Of a DNA stretch of 64,000 nucleotides, positions 1,052 through 62,509 are shown piece by piece. The translations under genes were made by a program, and so were the position numbers. Source of the stretch: Escherichia virus TH47; the sequence record MT446416.1; one strand, 5' to 3'. The notes under the pieces were generated by a model. The model did no database searches and had not been told where the DNA came from. It worked only from the letters and a program-made list of their open reading frames with translations. Position 1 is the first letter of the stretch. Each line of letters begins with the position of its first letter.

Positions 1052-1054
1052 CAA

Positions 1055-1086
1055 AAAGGAGAGCAAATGCTCTCCTTTTCTTTTTT
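1055..1086. terminator. bidirectional rho-independent terminator
   Basis: Perfect 10-bp stem aaaggagagc/gctctccttt with 4-nt loop, A-run upstream and T-run downstream; sits between convergent genes. Confidence 0.7.
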
Positions 1087-3373
1087 ACGCAATAACTTTT
1101 TCTACTGCTTTAGTTCGTTTAGGTTTGATTGCCAATTTACCATCAATCACATCAAACGTTACGTTACCACCATTAACCAGAGAACCACACAACATCTCTT
1201 TAGCTAGTGGGACACGGATGTTTTGCTCAATAGTGCGTTTCATTGGACGTGCACCCATTCCAACTTTAACACCATTTGTTGCCAACCACTCACGAGCCGC
1301 TTTGGTCAGTGAAACTTTAACTTTGCGGTCTTTGATTTGTTCATTCAAACTTCCCATGAACTTATCAATGATGCTGTCAATCGCTTCGCTGCTTAGGTCT
1401 TTGAATGTCACAATACTATCGATACGGTTGATGAATTCAGGTGGCAAGAATGCTTTAATCGCTTTATCTTGTGCTGTATCACTACCGCTCATCCCAATAC
1501 TACGCTTGGTTGAATCTGCTGCACCAAGGTTAGTCGTCATAATAACAGTTACGTTATTGAAGTAAACAGTTTTACCTTGTGAACCAGTCAAACGTCCTTC
1601 GTCCAGAACCTGTAGGAAGGTTAGTAGTACTTTACGATCAGCTTTTTCGATTTCATCGAGCAACAGTACTGCATTCGGGAACTGCTCAATCTTGTCGAGT
1701 AGCAGACCGTTACCAGAATCGTGACCAACATAGCCTGGAGGTGAACCAATCAGTTTAGCAACAGTATGTTCCTGTGAAAACTCGGACATATCGAAACGAA
1801 TCAGTTCAGAACCAGTTGCATCAGCCAGTGCTTTGGTAATTTCAGTTTTACCAGTACCAGATGGCCCAACAAACATGAATGCACCTTGAACACTTGATTT
1901 ATCACGCAGACCAGCACGAGCTACCATCACGTTATCAACCAGTTTCTGTACTGCTTCTTCTTGACCGTATACACGAGAACGGAGTGCATCTGGTAGATTA
2001 CGCATACGTTCACTTTCAGTGCAAGCAACCACGTTAATATCTAGGTTTGCGATACCTGCAACAACTTCTTGAATCAGTGCAACAGTGATGATGTTATCAT
2101 CAGTTTCACGAGAACGTACTTTCGCTGCCGCCGCATCCATTAGGTCGATTGCTTTGTCAGGGAAGTGTTTGTTCTTCAGGAACTTATCACTTAGTGTAAT
2201 AACTGCATCCATTGCTTCAGTACTGAACTCTACGTTATGGAAAGTTTCATAAGTAGATTTCAAACCATTCACAATCGCACGGGTTTCATCAATTGATGGC
2301 TCAACTACATCAATTTTCATGAAACGACGAGTTAGTGCACTATCTTTTTCGATGTTTTTACGATATTCATCGTAAGTTGTTGCACCGATTACACGAATCT
2401 CACCACGAGATAGTGCAGGTTTGAGCATGTTGCTCATATCCATAGAACCGTTGCTTGCTGAACCAGCACCAACCATAATATGGATTTCATCGATGAACAC
2501 AATAGTGTTTTCACGTTTCTTCAGTTCTTTTAGTAGGTTATCGATACGTTCTTCGAACTCACCACGGTACTTAGTACCAGCAGTCAGTGCACCTACGTTC
2601 AGAGACAGAATTTCAACATCTTTAAGATGCTCTGGTACTTCACCATCAGCGATTGCCTGTGCTAGACCATCAATGATTTGAGTTTTACCAACACCAGCTT
2701 CACCAGTCAGGATGGCATTCTTCTTAGTCTTACGGGCCAGAGTTTCAATCAGTGCAGAAAGCTCTTTCTGGCGACCAATCATTGGGTCAAGTTTACCTTC
2801 TTTTGCAAGTGCTGTTAGGTTAGTGGTGTAATCTTCTAAACCTTTTTGTTTGGACGATGGTTGCTGTTGTGCCACTTTTTTCTCCCCAGTTGGCTCATCA
2901 CTAATGCTTTGAAGGTTGATTCCGTTGTCGATTGCTTCTACGTGCTTCTGTAGAGTTCGTGCTGCTTCAGTACAAGTGATACCCTCTTCACGCAATGCTG
3001 CTTCTAGTGCAGTATTTGGGAAGGACAAACACTCAAACAGTACAAAATAAGCATCAATTGAGAAATCATCACGTTTAAGTTGCTCAATTACTGATTTCTT
3101 AGAAAGTTCCTGAACTACACGGTTCACGAGAAGTGATGTGCGGTTCGCTTCATCACCATCAGCACTTTTAGGTGCATGTGGGAATGTTGTATTCTTCAGA
3201 TATGCAATCAAACGACCGTGTAGGTTGTCTGCATCGATGTTCATATCTTCAAATACTGCTTTGATGCTATCGATTGTCAGTACTGTAGCACTTAGATGGT
3301 CAATAGTCAAGAAGGTATGACCCAGAGAAGTTGCCAGTTCGTCGCTTTTTTTGAATAATTGGGTAAGATTCAT
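1085..3373 (-). CDS. clpA: ClpA-like AAA+ unfoldase (Clp_N domain plus two AAA modules)
   Basis: N-terminal Clp_N-like repeats; D1 Walker A GEAGVGKT and Walker B FIDEIH; D2 Walker A GPSGTGKT and LLLDEIEKA; IGM tripeptide in D2 (ClpP-docking IGF/IGL-like loop); no ClpB middle domain. Start placed at ATG 3373 (GGAGAA SD 6 nt upstream) rather than GTG 3397. Confidence 0.85.
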   Translation of the reverse strand: MNLTQLFKKSDELATSLGHTFLTIDHLSATVLTIDSIKAVFEDMNIDADNLHGRLIAYLKNTTFPHAPKSADGDEANRTSLLVNRVVQELSKKSVIEQLKRDDFSIDAYFVLFECLSFPNTALEAALREEGITCTEAARTLQKHVEAIDNGINLQSISDEPTGEKKVAQQQPSSKQKGLEDYTTNLTALAKEGKLDPMIGRQKELSALIETLARKTKKNAILTGEAGVGKTQIIDGLAQAIADGEVPEHLKDVEILSLNVGALTAGTKYRGEFEERIDNLLKELKKRENTIVFIDEIHIMVGAGSASNGSMDMSNMLKPALSRGEIRVIGATTYDEYRKNIEKDSALTRRFMKIDVVEPSIDETRAIVNGLKSTYETFHNVEFSTEAMDAVITLSDKFLKNKHFPDKAIDLMDAAAAKVRSRETDDNIITVALIQEVVAGIANLDINVVACTESERMRNLPDALRSRVYGQEEAVQKLVDNVMVARAGLRDKSSVQGAFMFVGPSGTGKTEITKALADATGSELIRFDMSEFSQEHTVAKLIGSPPGYVGHDSGNGLLLDKIEQFPNAVLLLDEIEKADRKVLLTFLQVLDEGRLTGSQGKTVYFNNVTVIMTTNLGAADSTKRSIGMSGSDTAQDKAIKAFLPPEFINRIDSIVTFKDLSSEAIDSIIDKFMGSLNEQIKDRKVKVSLTKAAREWLATNGVKVGMGARPMKRTIEQNIRVPLAKEMLCGSLVNGGNVTFDVIDGKLAIKPKRTKAVEKVIA

Positions 3374-3411
3374 GTATTCTCCTAAATGAGTAGTCACTCT
3401 AATTAATAAAC

Positions 3412-3439
3412 ATTATATCACATTCTTTGCGTTTGTCAA
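3412..3439 (-). promoter_or_regulatory. sigma70-type promoter TTGACA-N16-TGaTATAAT driving the ClpA-like gene
   Basis: Minus-strand reading TTGACAaacgcaaagaatgtgaTATAAT; consensus -35 and extended -10, about 32-nt leader to the ATG. Confidence 0.6.
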
Positions 3440-6330: not shown

Positions 6331-6795
6331 ATGAATGAAGCAGTAGGTGCTATATTTTTATCTAAAAGTACTGGACACATGATGTTAAACTTGAGATCAG
6401 AAAGAAGTACGTATTCTAACAACTGGGCATTTGTTGGTGGGAAGCTTGAGTATAATGAAACTCCGTTACAGGGTCTTATGCGTGAGATTAAAGAAGAGCT
6501 AGGTGATTCTATTCCAACGATAATAGATATTATACCATTTGATGTATTTTGTACGAAGAATGGTAAATTTAAATATTATTCATTTGTCATTGTAGTTGAA
6601 AATGAATTCGTACCTACTTTAAATCATGAGAGTTCTGGTTATGCATGGGTTAAGATTGGCTCATGGCCCAAACCATTACATCCTGGTGCAAAAAACACAT
6701 TACTTAACACAAATTTAATGAAGGATTTCTATTCATTGTGGGAAAGTATACGACAAGGTACACAGTTTGTCAACAGCTTACCATATCGATATTAA
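6331..6795 (+). CDS. Nudix hydrolase
   Basis: Nudix box GGKLEYNETPLQGLMREIKEELG (G-x5-E-x7-REUxEExGU); AGGAGG SD. Confidence 0.8.
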   Translation: MNEAVGAIFLSKSTGHMMLNLRSERSTYSNNWAFVGGKLEYNETPLQGLMREIKEELGDSIPTIIDIIPFDVFCTKNGKFKYYSFVIVVENEFVPTLNHESSGYAWVKIGSWPKPLHPGAKNTLLNTNLMKDFYSLWESIRQGTQFVNSLPYRY

Positions 6796-16400: not shown

Positions 16401-18441
16401 AACAACTGCTGCTTCTCTTAATATTGCAAAAAATACTGCAATCAATGGTGATTTAGCTGTATCTGGTACACTAACTGCTGGTTCAATCGACCTAAGCAAT
16501 ACTGATGTAACCGTTAAATCTCTTGATTCACTAGGTAACGCACACATTGCTGGTAACCTAACTGTTGATGGTGCATTCGACTTAAGTGCAACTAACCTTG
16601 TAGCTGCAAGTCTAGCAAGTACTGGTTCTACTACTGTTGGAACTGATCTAGTACTAACAACTGGTGTTGTGACTGGTAGCCCAGCTATCTCTGGTAATAC
16701 AACAATCGGTGGAACTCTTGGTGTAACTGGTGCTGTTAACCTAACTGATATTGTTAATATCGGTAAGAAAGTAACAGTGAGTACTGGTGGTATTCAGGTA
16801 GTTGATGGTGGTATCAATACTAACACAATTAACGTTTCTGGTGCTACTACTCTAGCAGGAACTTCCATTACTGGAACTTTAGGTGTAACTGGTGCTTCTA
16901 CTCTAGCAGGTGTATCTGCAACATCACTAACAGTTTCTGGTGACAGTACTGTTCAGAAACTAACTGTCCAAGGTGAATTGATCCCACAAGGTGGTCTTGA
17001 CCTAAGCGGTGCAGACATTACTGCTAATAGTCTAACTACTGCAACAACTATCAATGCAACTGGCCTAAGTACTCTAAGTGGTGGTGTTAGTACTTCTACT
17101 GTGACTGCATCTGGTCTAGCAACTGTTGGAAGTTTAACTTCTACTGCAAACGCATCAGTTGGTGGTAATTTGGGTGTAACTGGAACTCTAGGTGTTACTG
17201 GTGCAACTACTGTATCTTCACTAACAGCTACTGGTGCAGTGAAAACTGGTACAACCCTAACTGTTGGTACTCCAGTTGGTGAACAACCTGAAACTGTACA
17301 GATCATTCCAGATACTTATATTGCTGGTAAATTGCGTGTAATCGGCGGTATTAACGCTGATATTGATGTTAGTGGTCAAACACTAGAACCATATGCAATT
17401 GAAGCTGCTGCAACACTATCTGCTGTTGGTAACATTACTTCTGGTGCAACCATCGTTTCTAAAGCTGCAACAATTGGTGATGTTGGTTCACAAAACAACA
17501 ACCTAACTGTTAATGGTAACGTAGTAACTAATGGTGACTTCACAGTTACTGGGGTACTAAATGCACAATTGAACCAAGCAGATTCCGATGTAGCTGTTAA
17601 ATCTTTAACTGCAACTAATAACGTTGCGGCTGGTACTTCAATCACTGCTGGTACTTCCATCACTGCAACTGGATTACTTAAAGGTAATACTTTAGAAGTT
17701 ACTACTACTGGTTCATTTGGTGGTGCAGTAACTATGTCAAGTGGTGCAAACATCACTGGTACAGTGGGTATTACTGCTGGTGACCTAACAGTAGGTGGTA
17801 ATATCTCTGCAACTGGCACTGCTGGATTCGGTGCAACAACCGTTTCTACAATTACAACATCAGGTTTGGCTACACTTGCAAGTACATCCGTTACTGGTAA
17901 CGCAACAGTAGGTGGAACACTAGCAGTAACAGGAGCACTAACTGCGAATGGTAACGTAACATTAGGTGACGCAGCGGCTGACGTTCTAACCGTTAATGCA
18001 ACTTCATCATTTAAAGAAAATGCTGTGTTTGATAAGGCAGTAACAGTAACTGGTGAACTAACCACTACTAATGCTAACTTAACTACTACAACAGTAACTA
18101 CCAAAAAGTATGATGTAATCCCAACTCAAGTTACATCATCAGTAATTGCTCCAACCGGAACATGGACTCCAGATGGTACAAGTAACGTGTACTTCATCAC
18201 TCTAGACCAAGATACCACGTTGGCTCCAATTACTGGCCTAATTGGTGGCGGTAAAGCTGCATCAGTATACATCTATGTTAAACAAGATACAACTGGTAAC
18301 AGAAACTTTACAACTGATGGTACTTATGCTGTTGTTGATGGTGAACTAAACAAAACTGCTGGTAGCGTGACCATTTACCAAGTAATTTATGATGGTGTAA
18401 GTCCAGTTACTGATTTGTTCATTGCACAACGTACTGCTTAA
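13483..18441 (+). CDS. giant repetitive fibrous protein (1652 aa)
   Basis: T/G/V/S/A-rich periodic sequence; GGAGGG SD; tandem 170-aa duplication near N-terminus. Confidence 0.6.
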   Translation: MYSIKTDLDITGGATVGKDLLVKGDAVFNKNLTVNGTVTFADAVFTAIEAGTVDISSTLDVAGKASLNGGIEVHGNSVIGNLPVGSDTATINSNAQFQSPVSMAGNLTQTAGTAVLKDTQVASMDVLGTSSFKGNITAETGTTAAFDKITATDATFTNTATTDITSTGTANFKDVNISGTLGGTFSLSDVNATTLTVSGLTSLQGGVTLGSNITGVNSSANFRDIKIGSNAANTNYRLSFNYSAPSLRPTVILQNEIQSELMSPATLSVLKTASFGDSSLSTFGITGNGLNKLDYLTVSGNSVQDPTTPLLQVTSGKTKVHDFEVTGTATIPNIESTGTANFNNINVSGTLGGTFSLDDIEANTLTVSGLTSLVGGVTLGADISGANSTANFKAVSLGQNAADANVKYGFAYSAPGARPTVILQNEIQSELVSPAVLNVQKTATFGDASLATYGITGNGLNKLDYLSITGNGTQSPATPQLQVAGKSVLNDVEFTGTVTGLTVDVSGQDLTPKSVVAAEAIKGQTLESVGQTTVGTNLQVGGTANVVGALTGTAATFTGDVSAAKGTFSGDVSVTGQTVTVRDLVVTGTTTGVTAQADVDGLDIAPNKVDVTTTLSVAGDTTLAGLTASSVTSTGDVTGASVSGNTVTAAGALSGGSLAVTGAGSMASLTVPSITGDTTFANNVTITGTLTPSSIDLSTTDVSAASLTTTGNVTVGGSLAVTGAIDLSAADVVTKSVSATNPSTFGVINASSVAATGDVSGGTLTTTGAAKVGTLTSTGVVSGSRLSSGTATISTSVTVPTLQAEAAGAGTLNLASNVVAAKDLTVTGVFKPEGGLDLTTVDITANSLTTTADVNVGGNLVVDGTFDLSAADVSVKSLVSAEAITSGGVITVTDSTNTSSFPKITSTDATLFTVNAGTINATGNSVLQSVSATQVTATSAEFSGSGLGLQVDNDANVGGALSVGGIATVGSLTTTAASLNIAKNTAINGDLAVSGTLTAGSIDLSNTDVTVKSLDSLGNAHIAGNLTVDGAFDLSATNLVAASLASTGSTTVGTDLVLTTGVVTGSPAISGNTTIGGTLGVTGAVNLTDIVNIGKKVTVSTGGIQVVDGGINTNTINVSGATTLAGTSITGTLGVTGASTLAGVSATSLTVSGDSTVQKLTVQGELIPQGGLDLSGADITANSLTTATTINATGLSTLSGGVSTSTVTASGLATVGSLTSTANASVGGNLGVTGTLGVTGATTVSSLTATGAVKTGTTLTVGTPVGEQPETVQIIPDTYIAGKLRVIGGINADIDVSGQTLEPYAIEAAATLSAVGNITSGATIVSKAATIGDVGSQNNNLTVNGNVVTNGDFTVTGVLNAQLNQADSDVAVKSLTATNNVAAGTSITAGTSITATGLLKGNTLEVTTTGSFGGAVTMSSGANITGTVGITAGDLTVGGNISATGTAGFGATTVSTITTSGLATLASTSVTGNATVGGTLAVTGALTANGNVTLGDAAADVLTVNATSSFKENAVFDKAVTVTGELTTTNANLTTTTVTTKKYDVIPTQVTSSVIAPTGTWTPDGTSNVYFITLDQDTTLAPITGLIGGGKAASVYIYVKQDTTGNRNFTTDGTYAVVDGELNKTAGSVTIYQVIYDGVSPVTDLFIAQRTA
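13978..14997 (+). repeat. tandem duplication (2 x about 510 bp) inside the giant fibre gene
   Basis: Protein segments 166-335 and 336-500 align over their full length (STGTANF...TVILQNEIQSEL...GITGNGLNKLDYL). Confidence 0.7.
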
Positions 18442-25385: not shown

Positions 25386-26714
25386 TTAACCAAGAGAGCG
25401 TGCTTTACGTACTAGGTCAGAGTACTTCATAACGAAGTCTTTAAACGCTGGTACATCTTTAATCGTAATCGCTACTTTATGAAGCGTGATGGTACGAATC
25501 GCCAGTACTGCCAGTTCTGCTTGAGTTGCAGAGAAGTTATGGTCTAGGAAGGTGATGAAGTTGTTGCACAGCTTACCCCAATCTTCCACTGGTAGACGTT
25601 GTTCTTGCTTCTCATTGTAGAGGTCGATAATTTTGTAAACCAGATTCAGAGTGATGAAGTAGTTCGCGGAAATATCAAGCGAAGCATCAATCTCTTTAAT
25701 CTCACCCTGTAGGATGGACATGGTATCTGGTAGTTTAGCTACGTTATCAACATACTCGATGTATTCAGTTGCTACGCCTTCACCAACACGACCTGCAATC
25801 ATCGCACGGAACACTTCTTTATCAATGTTCTTAACTTTCTTCAGATCTTCGTAGCGTGCTACTGCTTCCCATGAACGTGGAGAAGTACCACCACAGTGAG
25901 AAGGATCTTGTGGGCTAAGGGTGTTGAAGTGTTTAGCACCAGTGTTGTTGATGAACGCAACAGTTGCTGGGTTCAAACGCTTGCCAATCGCATAATCGTT
26001 AATCCAATCTTGATGATAAGGAATCATTTCGATGTGGGTCATACGGTCACGCAGTGGTGTAGCTAGAGAGAACGTTACACCGCCATCAGTTTCACGGTTA
26101 CCTGCTGCGAGAATCAGTGCAGTCTTAGGTAGCTTCATCTCACCAACACAACGGTCGAGGATTAGCTGGTAAGACGCTGCCTGTACAATCGGCATTGCAG
26201 AGTTGATTTCGTCAAACAGGATAACACCTTTCCAATCATCGGGCAATTTCAGTACTTTTGGTGCTGCCCACACAACTGCTGTTTCAGCGATGTAATCTTG
26301 TGCACTAGCCAGTTCAGATTCAATCAGTTGCTTACCATCCATATCAAGGAACACTTTCTCTGGAACTGGAATACCACGAAGGTCACTTGGTTCAATCTGA
26401 GACAAACGGAAATCGATAAAGTTAGTGTCTTGGTCGATTAGTTTGGCTTCAAACGCTGCCAGTTCACGGCGAAGTTGATCGGCATTTTCAGTATCAGCTT
26501 CGATTTGTTGTTTCATGAACTCAATTTTTGCCACGTTATCTTTACGCAGTGGGTAGTTCTCATCAGCGTATTGACGTGCGATAGCAGATTTACCGATACC
26601 AGGGCTACCCCAAATCATCAGGCTATCTTGAATCATGTCAGCCAGTGCCATTGCTTCTTTAGCTTTCTTAGGAGTCAGTTTTACGTTCAGGATATCGTTG
26701 TTTTGAGTAGACAT
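25386..26714 (-). CDS. MoxR/CbbQ-like AAA+ ATPase
   Basis: Walker A GSPGIGKS, Walker B ILFDEIN, coiled-coil insertion; AAAGGAAAA SD. Confidence 0.75.
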   Translation of the reverse strand: MSTQNNDILNVKLTPKKAKEAMALADMIQDSLMIWGSPGIGKSAIARQYADENYPLRKDNVAKIEFMKQQIEADTENADQLRRELAAFEAKLIDQDTNFIDFRLSQIEPSDLRGIPVPEKVFLDMDGKQLIESELASAQDYIAETAVVWAAPKVLKLPDDWKGVILFDEINSAMPIVQAASYQLILDRCVGEMKLPKTALILAAGNRETDGGVTFSLATPLRDRMTHIEMIPYHQDWINDYAIGKRLNPATVAFINNTGAKHFNTLSPQDPSHCGGTSPRSWEAVARYEDLKKVKNIDKEVFRAMIAGRVGEGVATEYIEYVDNVAKLPDTMSILQGEIKEIDASLDISANYFITLNLVYKIIDLYNEKQEQRLPVEDWGKLCNNFITFLDHNFSATQAELAVLAIRTITLHKVAITIKDVPAFKDFVMKYSDLVRKARSLG

Positions 26715-26885: not shown

Positions 26886-26913
26886 ATTATATCACATCGT
26901 TCAGGCTTGTCAA
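26886..26913 (-). promoter_or_regulatory. promoter P2 (TTGACA-N16-TGaTATAAT) with A-rich UP element
   Basis: Minus-strand aaaaaaaagttgTTGACAagcctgaacgatgtgaTATAAT; part of a ~70-bp direct repeat. Confidence 0.65.
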
Positions 26914-26979
26914 CAACTTTTTTTTATTTCTTTTTCAATCTCACATCTTGTGATTTTGAAAACTTGCTTCGTGGTGGTC

Positions 26980-27007
26980 ATTATATCACATCATTCGGCG
27001 TTGTCAA
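26980..27007 (-). promoter_or_regulatory. promoter P1 (TTGACA-N16-TGaTATAAT) with A-rich UP element
   Basis: Minus-strand aaaaaaaaagatgTTGACAacgccgaatgatgtgaTATAAT; second copy of the repeat. Confidence 0.65.
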
Positions 27008-39256: not shown

Positions 39257-41251
39257 TTAATATTTTTTTGTGTATTTTATATTACCAGAGTTGTAAATCT
39301 TATAATATCCCAATACATCACAGCAAATTTGTCTCTCAGTTAAGTTAATATCATGACCTTTCTTGACCAATTTATGTTTTTGACATTTCTGACGTGAAAT
39401 CCTCTCATGTGTTTGTGGGTCATAATAAAAATATCCGGGTTCTGTATAGCTATCAAACTCAAAGCCAAGAACTGTATAAAGATCACCACTACTCCAATCC
39501 ATATCCGCATATGTCAATAATGATTGTGGATTATATACTGTTTCAAAATATTTTAGTAATTTTGATGCACCACCAACAACTGTACCGGATGAACAGTATC
39601 TGATTAATTCATATTCATAGTTTTTATCAAACCTTGATTTACCAAAGGTCATAACTGCAACTAAATCACTTCCATAGTAAAGTCCAATGTGAATACTTGC
39701 TTGTGCAACACCTTGAATATGGTGTGATTTAGTAAACATATTACTTACTTGTTTGTCTATATTTCTAACAGTACATTTTCTAGCATAAATTCTATTTGAC
39801 ACTAGAAGTTTATTCTTTAAACGTTCCTTGATAATTTTATTTGTTAATGGGTTATCCCATTCATCTTCATAAATGTGAATAAGATTCACCCCATGTTTTA
39901 AACAATCCAATACCTTATCTTGATGTTTAGTGGAATTTACATTTTCATCATTATGCCAATACACACCATTAAATTCAATAGCTAGATTACGGTCTGGGAT
40001 ATACACATCCAACTCTTTAGGTTTCAGCACTGAACGGTCGTTTTCTATAATTTGCATATTTTGTATTAATGATTTTATATAATCAACTAAATCTTTCTCT
40101 TTCAATGAATGACCATTATTTTTCTGACACTTACATTTCACTTTATGATTTTTATACTTACTATAAAACAATTCATCACAATACTCACACCAAAATGGGT
40201 ATTCGTCTGTATTAACTTTCATCATTAGGTCGGTGTTTTCAAATAATGGAATATAGTTTTTATCAATATTTGCAACAATGATATTATATCTTTCGTCTAG
40301 ACGAGCAAGTGACATTTTCTCTTTATACTCATCAGTCTGTGAGTAGTGTTCTGAACCATATCTATTTTTTGTGGTTTCTTTCATTTTTTCAATGATAGAA
40401 TTATTTTGGGCTGGGTGTTTTACACCATATCGCTCCACATTGGTATTATGAACTTTTTCCTGAACACTCATATTGCTCATTGGGTAAAATGAATTATACT
40501 TCAACGTGTTGGTGTTTTTTATTTTATCTTGGACAATTTTATTTGATAGTGGATTGCCACCATATCGTTCAAGATTTGTTTTATTGATTTTTTCACGAAT
40601 CGTCGGTGATGATAAAGAATACTCAGCACCGTATCTTAATATATTTGTGTTTTTGGCTTTCTCTTTTACTTCATTTCTTTTGCTTTGGAATTCAACACCA
40701 TACTTTTTTAAATTTGTTGCTTTTACTTTATTGAATATTTCAGAGTTTTGGTTTGGATATTCACAACCATATCGCTCTATATTAGTTTGTTTGATTTTAT
40801 CTTTAGTTTCTGATGTTTGTAAATTAGATGAGACACCATAACGCTCAATGTTAGTTTTTTCTTTCTTTTGTTTTACTTCTTGTATTTGGGACACATTAGA
40901 TACACCATACATATCCATTAATGTTGATTTTGTTTTATTAGTTCGATTTTTATAATACATTTCATGGCATACATTACATGTATTTTTCTTATTAATCACA
41001 TAGTCATCACAAAATTTATAAAATCCTTTTTGGAAATTTTTGTATCTTGCTTTTTTTCCGCAATATGCAGTTGGAACGGTTGTTATATCATTCATGAACA
41101 TATATAGAATTTTATATATTTCGAAATCAGTTTTTGGTTCTATTCCAAAAGTAGAAAGGAGAACCCTCACACGAGAGTCCCCTTTGTATAAATGTACCCA
41201 TGAATTAATATGTTTTGACAACAAAAGTTTTTTTAATTCTTCATTGTTCAT
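39257..41251 (-). CDS. homing-endonuclease-like protein with ten ~23-aa RYG repeats and a Vsr-like nuclease domain
   Basis: Cys-rich N-terminus; ten ~23-aa R/K-Y-G/N repeats; C-terminal LAIEFNGVYWH motif typical of PD-(D/E)xK homing-endonuclease-like domains. Confidence 0.6.
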   Translation of the reverse strand: MNNEELKKLLLSKHINSWVHLYKGDSRVRVLLSTFGIEPKTDFEIYKILYMFMNDITTVPTAYCGKKARYKNFQKGFYKFCDDYVINKKNTCNVCHEMYYKNRTNKTKSTLMDMYGVSNVSQIQEVKQKKEKTNIERYGVSSNLQTSETKDKIKQTNIERYGCEYPNQNSEIFNKVKATNLKKYGVEFQSKRNEVKEKAKNTNILRYGAEYSLSSPTIREKINKTNLERYGGNPLSNKIVQDKIKNTNTLKYNSFYPMSNMSVQEKVHNTNVERYGVKHPAQNNSIIEKMKETTKNRYGSEHYSQTDEYKEKMSLARLDERYNIIVANIDKNYIPLFENTDLMMKVNTDEYPFWCEYCDELFYSKYKNHKVKCKCQKNNGHSLKEKDLVDYIKSLIQNMQIIENDRSVLKPKELDVYIPDRNLAIEFNGVYWHNDENVNSTKHQDKVLDCLKHGVNLIHIYEDEWDNPLTNKIIKERLKNKLLVSNRIYARKCTVRNIDKQVSNMFTKSHHIQGVAQASIHIGLYYGSDLVAVMTFGKSRFDKNYEYELIRYCSSGTVVGGASKLLKYFETVYNPQSLLTYADMDWSSGDLYTVLGFEFDSYTEPGYFYYDPQTHERISRQKCQKHKLVKKGHDINLTERQICCDVLGYYKIYNSGNIKYTKKY
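40277..40939 (-). repeat. in-frame ~69-bp tandem repeats encoding the RYG modules
   Basis: RYG/KYG/RYN recur every 22-24 residues (protein positions ~115-323). Confidence 0.6.
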
Positions 41252-45983: not shown

Positions 45984-47047
45984 AATATACCTTCCTCTGA
46001 AAGATGTTTTTTTAATACAGTTAAGTGGTCTTCATAATATGTTACACGTATTAATTTAATAAAATTCTTTTCACAATATTGTGTCTTTATAGTATCGTTA
46101 TCCTTGATGTTTTTCAATTTATCTTCTCCACCCCAATGAGGTGATTTCTCAAAATGTTGTTTACCATCATACTCAATACAAATATCATAATCAACCAAAT
46201 AAAAATCAAATCTTAATAACATTTTATTTTTACAGTCACTAAATGTTTGTTCTTTATTAAATTTTATACCATTTTCAATTAAAAAACGTGTTATTTCTCT
46301 ACTAGCTCTGGATTCAGTATGTTCAGATGAGCATATTGGGCAACCTTGTTTTTTATTTTTTGCTATATGAAAATTTGGAATGATATAAAAAGAATTATTA
46401 TGTTTTTTACAAATTATTTCAACATGAGTGCTACTATTAATGTAGATGACTTTTGAATAGTCATATACATTACCATGAATTTCTTTTGCTCGTTCAACAA
46501 ATTCAGCGGTGGTGAATGCGTGTGCTAATCTGGTTTTTTCAAATCGACAAATAGAGCAACCCTGACCACTTTGTATATTACTAATTTCCATTTCATCAAC
46601 GTGACCACATTTTAAGCATTTATAAGTTAATTTGGTTCTTTTATCTTTAATTATTGGTTGTTCTAAAAGTAATTCACATTCACCAGTCATTAGACTTTTT
46701 GAAGTCTTATAAAGATAATATCTATAATTTGCATTGTCATATTTCCCAATGATATATTTCATACCTTTCGTTTTTATATCATTTATATTTCTTTTTGTAT
46801 ATATAATACCATCTTTTTCAACAACAGTTCTTGTAAAACTAGATTTCCATTCATCACTTGATGTTATAGCAAATCCTAAAATATTATATCCTTTTTCTAT
46901 TATTTCTTCAAAATGTTCTTTAGGTGTTTTTGATGTTTTAATTAATTTTGGTGATAAATCTTCGGGACGCATCCATTCGAAACGCATACCTAATTCTTCA
47001 TGGAAATATACCTTCTCGTTATTTTCATTAAAATAAAATTTATACAT
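45980..47047 (-). CDS. homing-endonuclease-like protein (zinc ribbons plus Vsr-like nuclease motif)
   Basis: CLKCGH...CSIC and CPIC zinc-ribbon pairs; RFDFYLVDYDICIEYDGKQHF motif shared with the 39257-41251 protein. Confidence 0.55.
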   Translation of the reverse strand: MYKFYFNENNEKVYFHEELGMRFEWMRPEDLSPKLIKTSKTPKEHFEEIIEKGYNILGFAITSSDEWKSSFTRTVVEKDGIIYTKRNINDIKTKGMKYIIGKYDNANYRYYLYKTSKSLMTGECELLLEQPIIKDKRTKLTYKCLKCGHVDEMEISNIQSGQGCSICRFEKTRLAHAFTTAEFVERAKEIHGNVYDYSKVIYINSSTHVEIICKKHNNSFYIIPNFHIAKNKKQGCPICSSEHTESRASREITRFLIENGIKFNKEQTFSDCKNKMLLRFDFYLVDYDICIEYDGKQHFEKSPHWGGEDKLKNIKDNDTIKTQYCEKNFIKLIRVTYYEDHLTVLKKHLSEEGIL

Positions 47048-55002: not shown

Positions 55003-55351
55003 TTAGAAAATCCTGTAAAGATGTAGTAGACATTGGACTATCAGCACCATCATACCACAGTGATGTATATGGCTGAACTGAACTAATATCAATACACAAC
55101 CCTTCACGCTCACATTTTTGAGCGAATTCTTCAGTAGTTTGTTTGTTACCAAAAGAAATCTCAAATTCATAACTCTCAAATTCATAACTAGACATATCAA
55201 TATCAGTACTGTAAATTAATGCACCATCATATGTAATATGGAGTTTAGAATCTGCGTCAAAAAGACGATCTGAAATAGCTTCATAATCATCTTCAGGAAC
55301 TGCTTCAATAAGACGGGCCATTAGTCCAGATGTTACGCGGTAATCACTCAT
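54983..55351 (-). CDS. hypothetical protein
   Basis: Start at ATG 55351 (GGAGAA SD) rather than GTG 55381. Confidence 0.4.
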   Translation of the reverse strand: MSDYRVTSGLMARLIEAVPEDDYEAISDRLFDADSKLHITYDGALIYSTDIDMSSYEFESYEFEISFGNKQTTEEFAQKCEREGLCIDISSVQPYTSLWYDGADSPMSTTSLQDFLNANQKD

Positions 55352-55362
55352 ATATATTCTCC

Positions 55363-55392
55363 AAAAGAAAAGGAGAGTCACAATGACTCTCC
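55363..55392 (-). terminator. rho-independent terminator
   Basis: Perfect 9-bp stem ggagagtca/tgactctcc with T-run on minus strand. Confidence 0.6.
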
Positions 55393-55399
55393 ATATATT

Positions 55400-55843
55400 T
55401 TATTGTAAAACTTTAAGTTTGTAAAGCATTCCTTCACAAAAACTCATAATGTCTTCTAGTGTGTTAGTACTGCCATAGTCTTCAGCCTCTTCAAGCATAG
55501 CATGAATGGCTTTACATTGACTAACATATTCTTCAAGAATTGGTACACAATCCTCGATAGGGGTAAAACGATAACTGTTACCAGTACCTACCTGTAATGC
55601 CCCGCGAGTGTTCATAATACCCTCTACAAATGCATCAACGTACTCAGGTAACTCTTTGTATAGTTCATCCAATTGTAGATGCTTAGTGTAGAAATGGCTC
55701 TGTAAATGCCAGTTGTGAGCAGCAGCACTTAAAAATAAACTATTCTCAATAAATGTAAGTAGTACTTCATCATAAGAACTATCTTCTTCAGTATCTCCAA
55801 TAAAGTCCATAACGTGGCGAAGTGTTGATATATCTTCATTCAT
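55400..55843 (-). CDS. hypothetical protein
   Basis: Start at ATG 55843 (GAGGATG SD) rather than 55876. Confidence 0.4.
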   Translation of the reverse strand: MNEDISTLRHVMDFIGDTEEDSSYDEVLLTFIENSLFLSAAAHNWHLQSHFYTKHLQLDELYKELPEYVDAFVEGIMNTRGALQVGTGNSYRFTPIEDCVPILEEYVSQCKAIHAMLEEAEDYGSTNTLEDIMSFCEGMLYKLKVLQ

Positions 55844-55872
55844 ATAATTACATCCTCTATGTGTATTCATAT

Positions 55873-56514
55873 TCATATTTTATTTATAGTAATGGTGATA
55901 TTAAAACTTTCTATATCATTCTTTAATATATCAACTCGTTTTCGTAAACCATCTATAACTTCTGGTATTACATCATTTTTATACATCTCTATTAACTCTT
56001 CTATATATTTTTTCTTTTCTATCTGCCACGCACGATGTGCATCTTCTGGAGTTTCATAAACACCAATGTATGTTGTTTTATTATATATTGTTATTTTAGC
56101 ACAATAAGGTTTGGTATATTCACTCACCATGTCTTTTGGACGTTTTCTGTATATCACTCCCATTCCATATGGTGATGCATTTGCAGCACTGTCTAGTATA
56201 CAGTAATTCAATTCTTTGGGAACAAATGCACATGTTTCAGGAGAATAGATTTTCTTACTCCCACCAATAATATCTTTATCTAATTGATATCCTTCTTTAT
56301 AATGTGATTTGTACCAAATTTTAAATTTTGAATAATACTTCCACTCATCACATACAACAGTTCCAATATAAGAACCCTTAGCCTTATCGGAATAGCATCG
56401 GTCTAACATACGTTGCCATGCACAATATATTGCTCGATCTGGATTTGTTATACTAGCATCACCTTTTATATCACAGATGCCATGACCATAAAACTTCTTC
56501 ATTAATTTATCCAT
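55873..56514 (-). CDS. putative DNA-binding protein with AP2-like domain
   Basis: W..M..RCY...Y.G..VC.EW module and C-terminal YIGVYETPEDAHRAWQ AP2-like motif; no nuclease motif seen. Confidence 0.45.
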   Translation of the reverse strand: MDKLMKKFYGHGICDIKGDASITNPDRAIYCAWQRMLDRCYSDKAKGSYIGTVVCDEWKYYSKFKIWYKSHYKEGYQLDKDIIGGSKKIYSPETCAFVPKELNYCILDSAANASPYGMGVIYRKRPKDMVSEYTKPYCAKITIYNKTTYIGVYETPEDAHRAWQIEKKKYIEELIEMYKNDVIPEVIDGLRKRVDILKNDIESFNITITINKI

Positions 56515-56524
56515 ATTTTTGTAA

Positions 56525-60232: not shown

Positions 60233-62509
60233 TTATTTTTTACTGTACCATTGCATTTCACGGATATCTAATAGTACCTTCGTAGCCAACTTTATGTTTG
60301 GTCGCTTCGGTAGATGGGTTTTATGATACGCCACATTTCGGATGTAGTCAACCTTTTCGTTGAAATAATCCATAACTTCTTGATACAACCACTTCCCGTT
60401 ACGAATGTCCATCAACATAGCAGCATCTGGTCGGTGAACTTGGATGATGCCAGTTTCAAGTGCTTCCTCGGCTGTATTCAGCAGCCTGATTGTATGCATA
60501 GCATGTTTGCAATTTCCATGTAATGCGGTTTTTCCATTTCTACGAGTAATGAGTGTTCCGTTGGGAACAGAAAAACACACAGTTCTGTAATTAGTAACTG
60601 GAATTTTTTCAAGATTTTGTTTCATGTTCATTTTTTCGGTTTTGGGTTTCATATTGATATGAATTTGATATATATCAACACTACCAAAATTGGTTTCGTT
60701 TGTGTATGGTCCCCATTTTGATGTTTCATAACCACATAGCAATGCTAGTTTTTGAACATCATCAGCTAATAATGAATTGGTAGTATAATATACAAATGTA
60801 TCATTGTCATTAACTAAATTTCGTTTTGTTCCATCACCTTGTAACAAACCTTTCAGAAGGAAATCCATTTTACGTTTTGTTAAATCAAATACCCAATTTG
60901 GAATTCGTTTATTATATGAACCATGTCCACAATCATTATATAATGCTTCAGCTACTTCACTTGGGAATGTATATCTTGATTCGTCATTAGCTTGATAATC
61001 TTTCTTTTCTATAATGTATTCATTAAACATTAATTGACCAGATTTTTTGTATTTTGATAAAGCACAACGCATACCTTGACTAGTTTTTGACTGGGAAATA
61101 TATAAAGATTTTACTTTACCATCCCTGAAATTTATGCACCCATCTGAAATAAACCATCCCATGAGTTGAAGATAAACTTTGATATCCATGTAGTCAATTG
61201 GACTTTTTTTATCTTTGTGTTCTTTAGTTATTGGGGATATTGTATTCAAAATTTTATATGTTTCTTTTAATTGTGCTGCTTCTACAAATTTCCAATCAGA
61301 CATATCTTTTTGTTGATTTCGTGCATAATCCTTAACATACATTCGGTGGTTAGCAGTCACTAAAGTATCTTGGTGATGACCAGTGAAATGGTATAGATTG
61401 CCATTATATAAATTATCAAAACGTTCAGTGTATTTCTGATATTCAACTTTGTGATTTTTGTCAAAAGTAGCTAATAGATCGTTTTCAGTAATATCATCAA
61501 ATAACTTCCAACCATCTTTAGTTAAGAATTCAGTATCAAAACTATAACAGTCATAACCGTGGTGTGATTCAAGAATAGCACGTTTGGCATTACGGTTCTG
61601 CTTCCATTTGTGATAACTCTTACGGTTCTCACTATTTTCTTTGTATTCCTTTTCATTGAATTTTACAATGAGTTCAGGACGAACTTTTAATTCTTCCGAA
61701 GTACGTTCTTTATTGAAGTAACGTAGTGAACCATCAGCATTCACTGTACTTTCATTCGGGTTGATAATTACCCCAAAGATGTTTTCACCGTAATGGATTA
61801 GTTCATATCCAGAATTGTAATTCAATAAATTGAAATCACGATCTAATACTTTGTCAGTACTATAATTATGTACTAAACGTACAAAATGATATTGTTTCAA
61901 TGCTTGTGTTGAAACTAATTGTAATGAAGTATCACGCATGTATTTTTCGAAATCAATTTTTGTAGCATTGAATGGGTGAAGATTGGATTTATTCAAACGG
62001 TCAACCAAATACTGCGGGAATGTATCATACATCCATGAAAGTACTTCGTCAACTGGATGTTCTTCTAAAATTTCATTTAGTTTACGTTCAGCAATTCGTT
62101 CCTTATCGAGCCATCCGTGGTGATTCGACATACGCTTAACCTGATTGTATGCATAACCACTGTATGAATGAGCAATCTTTGAACTCAATAATTGCTGATT
62201 GAATGAGCGTAGATAGTCATAGATTTCAGTACTTTCTACGATGTGTTCCGGTTTAACCCATAGTGATTCAAGAATGTTTGGGTTAGCTTCTGTATAAAGA
62301 CTTAAGTACTGATTGACTTCATAAAATTTAGTATCTTCTTCAGAAGGATCTGAAACTTCCTTAACATTAAAAAAAGGAGTTAGGATAAATTCTTTGTTTG
62401 CAAGGAAGATACCACGATAATCGGTATCACTTTCTGGTGTGCTTGTGCCATACGCCTGTGAACCCGCTAAGTGTTTAACAATTGTTTGTTCTAGAAAATT
62501 GTTTTTCAT
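60233..62509 (-). CDS. Pol-beta-superfamily nucleotidyltransferase-like protein interrupted by an intein
   Basis: N-terminal GS-x9-SDTD nucleotidyltransferase signature; 346-aa insertion with intein and LAGLIDADG motifs; ATGA coupling with upstream gene. Confidence 0.65.
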   Translation of the reverse strand: MKNNFLEQTIVKHLAGSQAYGTSTPESDTDYRGIFLANKEFILTPFFNVKEVSDPSEEDTKFYEVNQYLSLYTEANPNILESLWVKPEHIVESTEIYDYLRSFNQQLLSSKIAHSYSGYAYNQVKRMSNHHGWLDKERIAERKLNEILEEHPVDEVLSWMYDTFPQYLVDRLNKSNLHPFNATKIDFEKYMRDTSLQLVSTQALKQYHFVRLVHNYSTDKVLDRDFNLLNYNSGYELIHYGENIFGVIINPNESTVNADGSLRYFNKERTSEELKVRPELIVKFNEKEYKENSENRKSYHKWKQNRNAKRAILESHHGYDCYSFDTEFLTKDGWKLFDDITENDLLATFDKNHKVEYQKYTERFDNLYNGNLYHFTGHHQDTLVTANHRMYVKDYARNQQKDMSDWKFVEAAQLKETYKILNTISPITKEHKDKKSPIDYMDIKVYLQLMGWFISDGCINFRDGKVKSLYISQSKTSQGMRCALSKYKKSGQLMFNEYIIEKKDYQANDESRYTFPSEVAEALYNDCGHGSYNKRIPNWVFDLTKRKMDFLLKGLLQGDGTKRNLVNDNDTFVYYTTNSLLADDVQKLALLCGYETSKWGPYTNETNFGSVDIYQIHINMKPKTEKMNMKQNLEKIPVTNYRTVCFSVPNGTLITRRNGKTALHGNCKHAMHTIRLLNTAEEALETGIIQVHRPDAAMLMDIRNGKWLYQEVMDYFNEKVDYIRNVAYHKTHLPKRPNIKLATKVLLDIREMQWYSKK
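60512..61549 (-). mobile_element. intein with LAGLIDADG homing endonuclease (346 aa)
   Basis: Starts CYSFDTEFLT (block A), block B TANH, LAGLIDADG motifs LMGWFISDG and LLQGDG, ends HGN before Cys +1; codons checked against DNA. Confidence 0.7.

Follow-up and report, generated by a model that had tools for sequence, protein, structure and literature searches.

A ClpA-like AAA+ unfoldase gene in a Rak2-like jumbo coliphage whose close relatives also encode ClpP and a ClpS-like protein

Sequence comparison confirms that positions 1085-3373 (minus strand) of a 64,000-nucleotide stretch of Escherichia virus TH47 (MT446416.1; hereafter the window) encode a predicted intact ClpA-type double-ring AAA+ protein. 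On balance, we favour the reading that it is a functional hexameric ClpA-family unfoldase and most likely serves as the ATPase in a ClpAP protease that the phage encodes together with a ClpS-like adaptor. The window is Rak2-like jumbo coliphage DNA, 99.3% identical to fEgEco12, EC.P1 and WPEC5, and as a gene call our result adds nothing new, the ClpA-like gene being already known: GenBank holds proteins 99.9% identical to it (several labelled Clp ATP-binding subunit or ClpA-like, others hypothetical protein), a ClpA-like annotation is present in 121Q, slurp01, Sharanji and others, and the family has its own PHROG entry, 4871. Jumbo-phage ClpA has been discussed previously (PMC6102473, PMC7824862). 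The papers on fEgEco12, Sharanji and phAPEC6 do not discuss Clp genes, and our literature searches turned up no biochemistry or genetics on a phage ClpA or ClpP.

The coding sequence and its domains are arranged as follows:

1085..3373, minus strand: coding sequence of the ClpA-like AAA+ unfoldase (762 aa plus stop codon), from PHROG 4871, E. coli ClpA and dN/dS
2924..3373, minus strand: divergent N-terminal Clp_N-type domain (~aa 1-150), from Pfam Clp_N and alignment to TIGR02639 and E. coli ClpA
2054..2818, minus strand: D1 AAA+ module (~aa 186-440), from Pfam and a motif table against E. coli ClpA
1124..2053, minus strand: D2 AAA+ module and D2-small domain (~aa 441-750), from Pfam and the same motif table
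1490..1498, minus strand: I626-G627-M628 tripeptide occupying the place of the IGL docking loop in E. coli ClpA, from alignment

A Pfam search of the 762-aa protein returned AAA (D1), AAA_lid_9, AAA_2 (D2, E=3e-49) and ClpB_D2-small. Set against E. coli ClpA in the motif table, the Walker A and B motifs, pore-loop tyrosines, arginine fingers and sensor-2 are intact across D1 and D2: D1 carries Walker A GEAGVGKT (K230), pore loop KYRGE (Y269), Walker B IVFIDE (D295, E296) and arginine fingers in LTRRF, and D2 carries Walker A GPSGTGKT (K509), pore loop GYVG (Y548), Walker B LLLDE (D573, E574), arginine finger FINRID and sensor-2 GARPM. With a phmmer match to E. coli ClpA (1ksf) at E=2e-178, these motifs bear out the full-length double-ring ClpA-type unfoldase proposed in a preliminary description of this DNA. 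As to the Clp_N domain proposed there, the isolated N-terminus contains one marginal Pfam Clp_N repeat (aa 11-59, 21.5 bits versus a cutoff of 20.7) and aligns with the N domains of TIGR02639 and of E. coli ClpA, but a second repeat went undetected.

At the level of the whole protein, the NCBIfam ClpA model TIGR02639 aligns end to end with 751.8 bits, under its equivalog cutoff of 993.15 bits, and NF008263 scores 649.9 bits against a cutoff of 1350; since both scores lie under the equivalog cutoffs, the protein is best named ClpA-like or ClpA-family and not an equivalog of bacterial ClpA. BLASTP identity to E. coli ClpA is 43%, and PHROG 4871 matches over the full length with 1020 bits. ClpA and the phage protein align without a break or insertion across D1 and D2, meaning that an M-domain is absent, and models of ClpB, ClpV, ClpK and ClpG match the phage protein in two separate stretches. 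Because the M-domain is absent, a ClpB-like stand-alone disaggregase, one of the roles offered in the preliminary description, is unlikely.

The gene is bounded by its own transcription and translation signals:

3379..3383, minus strand: Shine-Dalgarno sequence AGGAG, 5 nt upstream of the clpA ATG
3412..3439, minus strand: sigma-70-type promoter, TTGACA-16 nt-TATAAT with an extended -10 (TGTGATATAAT)
1053..1080, no strand assigned: bidirectional intrinsic terminator (hairpin) lying between the stop codon of ClpA and the giant structural gene that converges on it

The enclosing open reading frame spans 1085..3397 (minus strand), and the ATG at 3373, which yields the 762-aa protein, is the start also annotated in the ClpA genes of relatives. 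We rejected the GTG at 3397, which lies ~15 nt past the -10 hexamer, lacks a ribosome-binding site and is used by no annotation. The promoter (TTGACA-16 nt-(TG)TATAAT) matches the consensus at 12/12 positions, in agreement with the earlier claim of a consensus promoter for clpA itself; the 64-kb window has just 3 perfect promoters of this kind. It is kept in fEgEco12, phAPEC6 (-35 = TAGACA) and CBB (TGTGCTATAAT). The hairpin, followed by a T-run, lies directly past the ClpA stop codon and is also present in phAPEC6 and, with a different stem sequence, in CBB. In fEgEco12, near-consensus sigma-70 promoters immediately precede ClpA, ClpP and the g413-g414 operon; the ClpA and ClpP promoters share the extended -10 TGTGATATAAT, an 11-mer with 9 copies on the fEgEco12 plus strand and 0 on the other.

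Since clpA lies on the strand opposite to its neighbours and has its own sigma-70-type promoter and terminator, it does not appear to be a member of a late operon and would instead form an autonomous transcription unit, transcribed by the host sigma-70 RNA polymerase. Such a promoter points to expression apart from the surrounding late tail and baseplate genes, and, as judged from promoter sequence, clpA is probably expressed early or in mid-infection. A literature search for Asteriusvirus transcriptomics returned nothing relevant, and the PhageExpressionAtlas preprint mentions clpP only for the host.

Candidate partners of ClpA are found in near-identical relatives, TH47 itself having been read here over 64 kb. 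Within this window, a tblastn search using ClpP and ClpS from E. coli, phage and PA5oct as queries gave nothing credible at E<=1. The earlier remark that ClpA occurs without a ClpP gene therefore holds for the window but is an effect of its limits: in fEgEco12, a 99.9%-identical relative, ClpP (g207; Pfam CLP_protease, E=1e-41, full length) lies ~25 kb past the point where the window ends. The g207 protein shares 36% identity with E. coli ClpP; its Ser-His-Asp triad aligns and is retained in 66/66 members of the phage ClpP clade. Among the nine closest phages, eight carry a g207-type ClpP at >=99.6% identity, with BF17 at 95.7%. Some records label g207 orthologues as a head-maturation protease; we rejected this label because fEgEco12 has a separate T4 gp21-type prohead protease, g348, located in its head module. 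ClpA is the only Clp-type unfoldase in fEgEco12, where an E. coli ClpX query matches ClpA D2 alone.

The ClpS-like adaptor (fEgEco12 g414) required a family profile for its detection, as the single sequence is only weakly recognized (Pfam ClpS 15.6 bits, under the cutoff; PDB matches at E ~0.4-0.7). The profile recovers structures of E. coli ClpS (E=4e-5), and 19/19 family members match Pfam ClpS (best E=3.5e-8), with residues aligned to the N-degron pocket that differ from those of E. coli ClpS. The three genes are scattered over ~170 kb of fEgEco12 (ClpA at 168 kb, ClpP at 80.5 kb, ClpS-like at 251.8 kb) with no operon, and the bacterial clpS-clpA adjacency is absent. All close relatives encode both ClpP and the ClpS-like gene, and redirection of host ClpP, put forward in the preliminary description, is therefore no longer the default reading.

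The preliminary description had also placed an IG[FLM]-type loop at the ClpP-docking position, and the alignment agrees: KRSIGMSGS (1481-1507, minus strand) aligns with E. coli KSIGLIHQ, which contains the I617-G618-L619 docking loop, and the phage IGM is a conservative variant fitting the canonical [LIVM]-G-[FLM] motif. Where E. coli ClpA has I620, another pocket contact in the E. coli ClpAP complex, phage ClpA has Ser or a gap.

Within the phage ClpA clade, the tripeptide drifts widely (IGM, LGL, IGV, IGA, IGG, MSM, MNM, MGM and others) and differs by sublineage, with IGM in the TH47 type, LGL in the 121Q type, IGV in RaK2, and LGM or MGM in GAP32, XbC2 and related types. This variability could mean that, in certain lineages, selection on docking to ClpP has relaxed. 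The docking pocket of phage ClpP is remodelled, with L114 changed to G, F82 to N or S (non-aromatic) and Y60 to T. Among the few named pairs compared (TH47 type, 121Q type, RaK2, GAP32 and an Erwinia phage), ClpA tripeptide and ClpP pocket residues co-vary in no simple pattern; the TH47 and 121Q types have identical pocket residues and different tripeptides (IGM versus LGL). The drifting tripeptide and the remodelled pocket together hint at a private phage ClpA-ClpP interface, and as side observations both may be new.

Full-length ClpA is uncommon in phages, as the preliminary description had supposed: matches covering >=80% of the protein occur in 96/50,697 records. In the same genera, the number of records with a match is 70 for ClpA (at >=60% identity), 69 for ClpP and 71 for the ClpS-like protein; all three were confirmed inside a single genome for fEgEco12 and a small number of other phages. 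Phage ClpA forms a distinct clade, in which identities run from 100% down to 54% and then fall to <=45% for the other, mostly unnamed matches (one gammaproteobacterial-labelled ClpA stands at 40%). Phages from at least 9 genera have an orthologue at the same genomic position, and the site, with a tail-sheath-stabiliser cluster on one side and a giant structural gene (3,323 aa) on the other, is strictly conserved from coliphages to Pectobacterium phage CBB (61% identity). With dN/dS at ~0.04 against phAPEC6 (0.07 for the N domain, a sign of constraint there as well), clpA is, on comparative grounds, an old acquisition under strong purifying selection.

[quoted passage not shown] The main docking partner would be the phage's own ClpP, the orthologue of g207, and the choice of substrate would be tuned by the ClpS-like adaptor, the orthologue of g414; candidate substrates include host proteins, defence factors and early phage proteins. 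More tentatively, and with well under even confidence, phage ClpA and ClpP may constitute an orthogonal protease of the phage's own, kept apart from host ClpA, ClpX and ClpP by a remodelled interface (the three ClpP pocket substitutions described above, the drifted ClpA tripeptide and the loss of I620), with the altered, clade-invariant pocket of the ClpS-like adaptor steering it early in infection to non-canonical substrates such as host defence or housekeeping proteins.

It is also conceivable that E. coli ClpP is the docking partner and that phage ClpA turns host proteolysis on substrates of the phage's choosing, with phage ClpP irrelevant to its action. The exact alignment of IGM, a conservative motif variant, with IGL is consistent with this, as is early sigma-70 expression, which would put ClpA into a cell full of host ClpP. 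However, the lineage always has its own ClpP, catalytically intact as judged by its aligned triad, and no other Clp unfoldase to serve it; the tripeptides MSM, MNM and IGG of relatives would be expected to suit the canonical hydrophobic pocket poorly, and the I620 contact is lost. We regard such hijacking as unlikely, while noting that phage ClpA may work with both host and phage ClpP. E. coli ClpA by itself has chaperone activity and can remodel RepA, and a phage ClpA acting alone might comparably remodel or hold tail and baseplate proteins, for example its 3,323-aa neighbour, during virion assembly without proteolysis. The strictly conserved site, kept out to CBB between tail and baseplate genes, would suit such a role and to this extent counts against the ClpAP model; Iyer et al. 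also suggested that jumbo-phage ClpA and ClpX may help virion assembly (PMC7824862). Against an assembly role, clpA lies outside the late operon, on the opposite strand and with its own signals, keeps a ClpP-type loop, and has no M-domain for DnaK-coupled disaggregation. In addition, the orthologue gp246c is absent from the phAPEC6 virion proteome, in which the products of both flanking structural genes were detected, and the clade as a whole has kept both ClpP and the ClpS-like gene together with clpA. We regard this reading, too, as unlikely.

The remaining alternative, a recent and possibly non-functional capture of a host clpA, had been named in the preliminary description as what would undo its proposal. 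It has shared family membership in its favour, but the 43% identity to E. coli ClpA, the lack of any megablast match to clpA in 5,426 complete E. coli genomes, the low dN/dS (0.04), the intact motifs and the shared position across genera refute a recent host origin, to which we assign a negligible probability.

The ClpAP reading is of modest importance at present, in that no phage ClpA/ClpP/ClpS set appears in the literature we searched to have been studied experimentally. Should the set prove to be a self-contained protease whose docking interface is private to the phage, it would illustrate how giant phages seize control of host proteostasis or get rid of defence proteins, and protein-degradation engineering would gain a naturally orthogonal ClpAP pair.

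Compared with known systems, the phage protein resembles ClpB/Hsp104 as a double-ring Hsp100 AAA+ protein with similar D1 and D2, but lacks their coiled-coil M-domain and is matched by ClpB models in two pieces; ClpB is not known to have a ClpP-docking-type loop, which phage ClpA carries. The likeness to E. coli ClpA (PDB 1ksf, 6w1z) is closer, extending to the N domain, D1, D2 and D2-small without an M-domain (the alignment covers residues 17-741), to all Walker, pore-loop, arginine-finger and sensor-2 motifs, and to the place of the docking tripeptide. The phage protein differs in its 43% identity, its score under the ClpA equivalog cutoff, its divergent N domain with one detectable Clp_N repeat and its loop (IGM-S versus IGL-I), and its gene is not beside clpS. 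Pseudomonas phage PA5oct and Agrobacterium phage Atu_ph07 likewise encode ClpA, ClpP and ClpS together, though their ClpA identity is 41%. In PA5oct, unlike in the TH47 group, the three genes lie inside 23 kb among DnaJ, FtsH-like and chaperonin genes; its ClpP is nearer to the bacterial enzyme (46% identity with that of E. coli versus 36% for g207), and its ClpS is of normal size (~100 aa), whereas the g414 type has 181 aa with N- and C-terminal extensions. The closest comparison is with ClpA of the Rak2-like jumbo phages (121Q gp581, phAPEC6 gp246c, RaK2_00069, GAP32, CBB gp235; PHROG 4871), which are orthologues at 61-99.9% identity and share position, orientation, extended -10 promoter and terminator, with small differences only and a tripeptide that varies by sublineage; the TH47 protein is a member of this group.

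The gene at window positions 1085-3373 (minus strand) is a known, annotated ClpA-like gene typical of the Rak2-like jumbo phages. Its DNA is 99.0-99.3% identical to that of the Escherichia jumbo phages EC.P1, WPEC5, fEgEco12, vB_Ec-M-J, Ecwhy_1, Turkey3, WPEC3 and BF17, and 84% identical to that of the 121Q, PBECO4 and phAPEC6 (Asteriusvirus) group. The window is colinear, with some indels, with 105.3-171.45 kb of fEgEco12; the ClpA genes of the two differ at 16 nt and their proteins at a single residue. One ~2-kb segment lacking a counterpart at the same position in fEgEco12 is filled by a 664-aa DUF7487-domain ORF (39257-41251, minus strand, E=4e-38); further segments unmatched in fEgEco12 lie at ~45984-47042, 55351-56521 and 60513-61547, and ~5.1 kb of fEgEco12 long-tail-fibre genes is absent near window position 17900. 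Since the ClpA gene is already named in many records of these relatives, matches PHROG 4871 over its full length (1020 bits), and belongs to a set (ClpA, ClpX, ClpP, ClpS) listed among jumbo-phage proteins by Iyer et al. (PMC7824862), the finding is already known at the annotation level; a literature search for an experimental study of a phage ClpA found none.

Features of the ClpA gene, its promoter 11-mer and its putative partner (window coordinates unless stated)
3439-3412, minus strand: sigma-70-type promoter TTGACA-16 nt-TATAAT with TG extended -10, matching 12/12 consensus positions
3383-3379, minus strand: Shine-Dalgarno AGGAG upstream of the ClpA ATG
1085..3397, minus strand: ClpA ORF, encoding 762 aa from the ATG at 3373
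D1 motifs: Walker A GEAGVGKT, pore loop KYRGE, Walker B IVFIDE, Arg fingers LTRRF
D2 motifs: Walker A GPSGTGKT, pore loop GYVG, Walker B LLLDE, Arg finger FINRID, sensor-2 GARPM
nt 1490-1498: docking tripeptide I626-G627-M628, aligned with I617-G618-L619 of E. coli ClpA
1053-1080: terminator hairpin and T-run after the ClpA stop codon
3412-3422 and 26886-26896: sites of the 11-mer TGTGATATAAT
80,543-81,238 of fEgEco12: ClpP gene g207, full-length CLP_protease (Pfam E=1e-41)

The preliminary description of a complete double-ring AAA+ unfoldase of ClpA type holds: motif comparison (residues numbered via BLASTP alignment with E. coli ClpA) found all catalytic elements intact, and the best PDB match is E. 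coli ClpA (phmmer E=2e-178; 43% identity by BLASTP). The start codon is shared with annotated relatives, and Pfam domains comprise AAA (D1), AAA_lid_9, AAA_2 (D2, E=3e-49) and ClpB_D2-small. Of the proposed Clp_N domain, one repeat is detected, which barely exceeds the Pfam threshold with the N-terminus searched alone (21.5 versus 20.7 bits). The alignment to the NCBIfam ClpA model runs end to end, pairing residues 3-741 with model positions 5-733, though at 752 bits it falls short of the 993-bit equivalog cutoff; models for ClpB, ClpV, ClpK and ClpG match in two pieces only, indicating that an M-domain is lacking. The IGM loop likewise aligns with the ClpP-docking tripeptide I617-G618-L619 of E. 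coli ClpA, which inserts into a hydrophobic pocket of ClpP (Lopez et al., bioRxiv 10.1101/820209).

It had been left open that the gene might be a recent, non-functional acquisition from a host, which our data refute. Besides the modest identity to E. coli ClpA, megablast against 5,426 complete E. coli genomes gave no match, and in a collection of 5.8 billion proteins the phage clade runs unbroken from 100% to 54% identity, followed by matches at <=45% that are mostly unnamed (one is labelled gammaproteobacterial ClpA, at 40%). Comparison with phAPEC6 gave dN 0.043 and dS ~1.06, hence a dN/dS of ~0.04 overall (N domain 0.07, D1 0.03, D2 0.03) that is only approximate because dS is near saturation; constraint on ClpA is clearly strong. 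Synteny is alike in fEgEco12, phAPEC6 and CBB (a Pectobacterium phage with ClpA at 61% identity), in the order tail-sheath stabiliser, structural gene, ClpA in opposite orientation, and a giant structural gene of ~3,300 aa. ClpA is an old gene passed on vertically, rather than one lately captured from a host or in decay. A NUDIX hydrolase gene (6331-6795, plus strand) is also non-structural amid late genes, lying on the opposite strand inside the tail/baseplate module at a position kept in phAPEC6 and CBB. A protein cluster (P0001) with a representative ~100% identical to the window ClpA, named 'AAA family ATPase [Escherichia coli]' by NCBI, has 69 members, spread over 35 contigs (longest, 378,573 bp); these appear to be whole jumbo-phage genomes deposited within E. 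coli assemblies, although the set of complete E. coli genomes holds none.

As described previously, the window contains no ClpP, and no ClpS was found there either. A search for Clp partner genes across the whole fEgEco12 genome located g207 ~25 kb past the far end of the window, encoding a protein whose Ser, His and Asp align with those of E. coli ClpP (36% identity). A role for g207 as the prohead protease was ruled out, the genuine one being g348 in the head module. Gene g414 (181 aa, labelled 'protease adapter protein') has a ClpS core at approximately residues 69-139. Searched singly, it falls below the Pfam threshold for ClpS, but the top ten matches of its family profile (n=19) are all ClpS, with E. 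coli ClpS structures reached at E=4e-5, and Pfam ClpS matches 19/19 family members (best E=3.5e-8). No ClpX was found in fEgEco12, where an E. coli ClpX query matches only D2 of ClpA, and ClpA is the sole Clp-type unfoldase encoded by this phage. The three genes are distributed alike: phage-database records number 70 for ClpA (>=60% identity), 69 for g207-type ClpP and 71 for the g414-type adaptor, and all three genes occur in phages of Escherichia, Klebsiella, Salmonella, Erwinia, Yersinia, Xanthomonas, Pectobacterium, Cronobacter and Serratia. ClpP is >=99.6% identical in amino acids in 8/9 closest relatives (95.7% in BF17). By these comparisons, ClpA belongs to a scattered set of phage Clp genes, the rest of which are found beyond the window. 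Other peptidase-like genes of fEgEco12 include g214 (L006:34170-34778), very divergent and ClpP-like (Pfam CLP_protease, 20.6 bits) with the catalytic Asp and possibly also Ser unaligned, and the HslV-family-like g216 (L006:35128-35721) and g518 (L011:5560-6057) of PHROG 1040; no HslU is annotated in that genome.

ClpA is an autonomous transcription unit within the tail/baseplate module, antiparallel to both neighbours, and the promoter previously assigned to it proved to be one of three 12/12 promoters in the 64-kb window. The extended -10 and terminator hairpin are kept in phAPEC6, where the -35 hexamer is TAGACA, and in CBB, with TGTGCTATAAT and a hairpin of different stem sequence. The ClpP gene g207 has a promoter (TAGACA-16 nt-TGTGATATAAT) 35 bp upstream, sharing the extended -10 TGTGATATAAT with that of ClpA, and the g413-g414 operon has a 12/12 promoter 45 bp upstream. 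Across fEgEco12, 43/43 perfect sigma-70 promoters lie on the strand of early and middle genes, as do all 9 copies of TGTGATATAAT (0 on the other strand; ~0.5 per strand expected by our composition estimate). Copies precede ClpA, ClpP g207, ClpP-like g214, the divergent AAA+ ATPase g308 and g422, the last being followed by a GroES-like gene. For the shorter GTGATATAAT the strand counts are 23 versus 0, many copies having GGACA or AGACA at the would-be -35 position. These sites may form a promoter class of their own that connects proteostasis genes, and the promoter evidence suggests that host RNA polymerase would transcribe the Clp genes ahead of the late genes. The other two 12/12 promoters of the window are in tandem, 94 bp apart (26886-27007, minus strand; both TTGACA-16 nt-TGTGATATAAT), upstream of an ORF (25386-26714, minus strand) whose 442-aa product is a divergent AAA+ ATPase (21.3 bits to Pfam AAA). 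The apparent counterpart of this ATPase, matched by size and annotation only, is the virion-detected 49.5-kDa 'ATPase' gp265c of phAPEC6.

The docking tripeptide is strikingly variable across the phage clade; outside it, in eight hits comprising E. coli ClpA plus seven more at <=45% identity, the tripeptide is IGF, MGF, IGY or IGL.

Docking tripeptides of phage ClpA by type
IGM: window
LGL: 121Q type
IGV: RaK2
IGA, IGG: unnamed metagenomic relatives
MSM, MNM: Salmonella SE_PL type
MGM, LGM, VGM: XbC2, GAP32 and Erwinia-phage types
IGF, VGF: deeper branches

Several changes in phage ClpP affect residues that Lopez et al. (bioRxiv 10.1101/820209) assign to the pocket. The catalytic triad is kept in 66/66 members of the ClpP clade; L114 is replaced by G in 62/66, F82 by N, S, G or C in 62/66 (aromatics are nearly absent) and Y60 by T in 57/66. 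R192, presumably also a pocket residue though outside the list quoted from that study, is replaced by E, K or Q. At E. coli ClpS N34, D35, D36, T38, M40 and H66, which we take to form the N-degron pocket, the ClpS-like family has D, D, P, T, A and N; D82, D83, T86, A88 and N114 (5/6) are invariant across the 19 aligned members, whereas the Pro opposite D36 is not among the columns listed as such. Taken together, these details fit a co-adapted ClpA-ClpP-adaptor set with non-canonical specificity, perhaps insulated from the host, but suit relaxed docking constraints as well; the few matched ClpA/ClpP pairs gave no simple pattern of tripeptide-pocket co-variation.

The simplest and most likely reading, to which the promoter evidence also points, is that the phage encodes a ClpAP protease of its own, with a ClpS-like protein as specificity factor. 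The earlier proposal, that the unfoldase, with no ClpP gene in the window, could redirect host ClpP or act as a stand-alone disaggregase, was sound in its observation and is partly supported in its interpretation; relatives carry their own ClpP and ClpS-like gene outside the window. Hijacking of host ClpP by the IGM variant is possible, yet leaves the lineage's constant retention of its own ClpP unexplained. That ClpA instead serves as a proteolysis-independent assembly chaperone, as suggested by Iyer et al. (PMC7824862) and in keeping with its conserved position among tail genes, seems unlikely: it has its own sigma-70-type promoter, on the strand opposite to its neighbours, retains the ClpP loop and has no M-domain. 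It is also missing from the virions of phAPEC6, whose mass-spectrometry list includes the flanking gp245 and gp248 but neither the orthologue gp246c nor any other Clp protein. Virion mass spectrometry has reported ClpP but not ClpA in CBB (CBB_104, 1 peptide; PMC5259590) and in Pseudomonas phage PA5oct (L014:8850-9521, flagged 'ESI-MS/MS' in its GenBank record), which could reflect packaging or contamination.

The remodelling of the docking interface offers a lead that can be tested. In PA5oct, the region at 171.5-197.5 kb is a dense proteostasis block encoding a small heat-shock protein, ClpS, an FtsH-interacting membrane protein, an FtsH-like protein, ClpP, a polyubiquitin-like protein and a chaperonin, with DnaJ directly upstream of ClpA. 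The more distant PA5oct group, whose ClpA is 41% identical, thus keeps ClpS, ClpP and ClpA inside 23 kb, in the company of genes for DnaJ, an FtsH-like protein and a chaperonin, unlike the present lineage with its dispersed genes.
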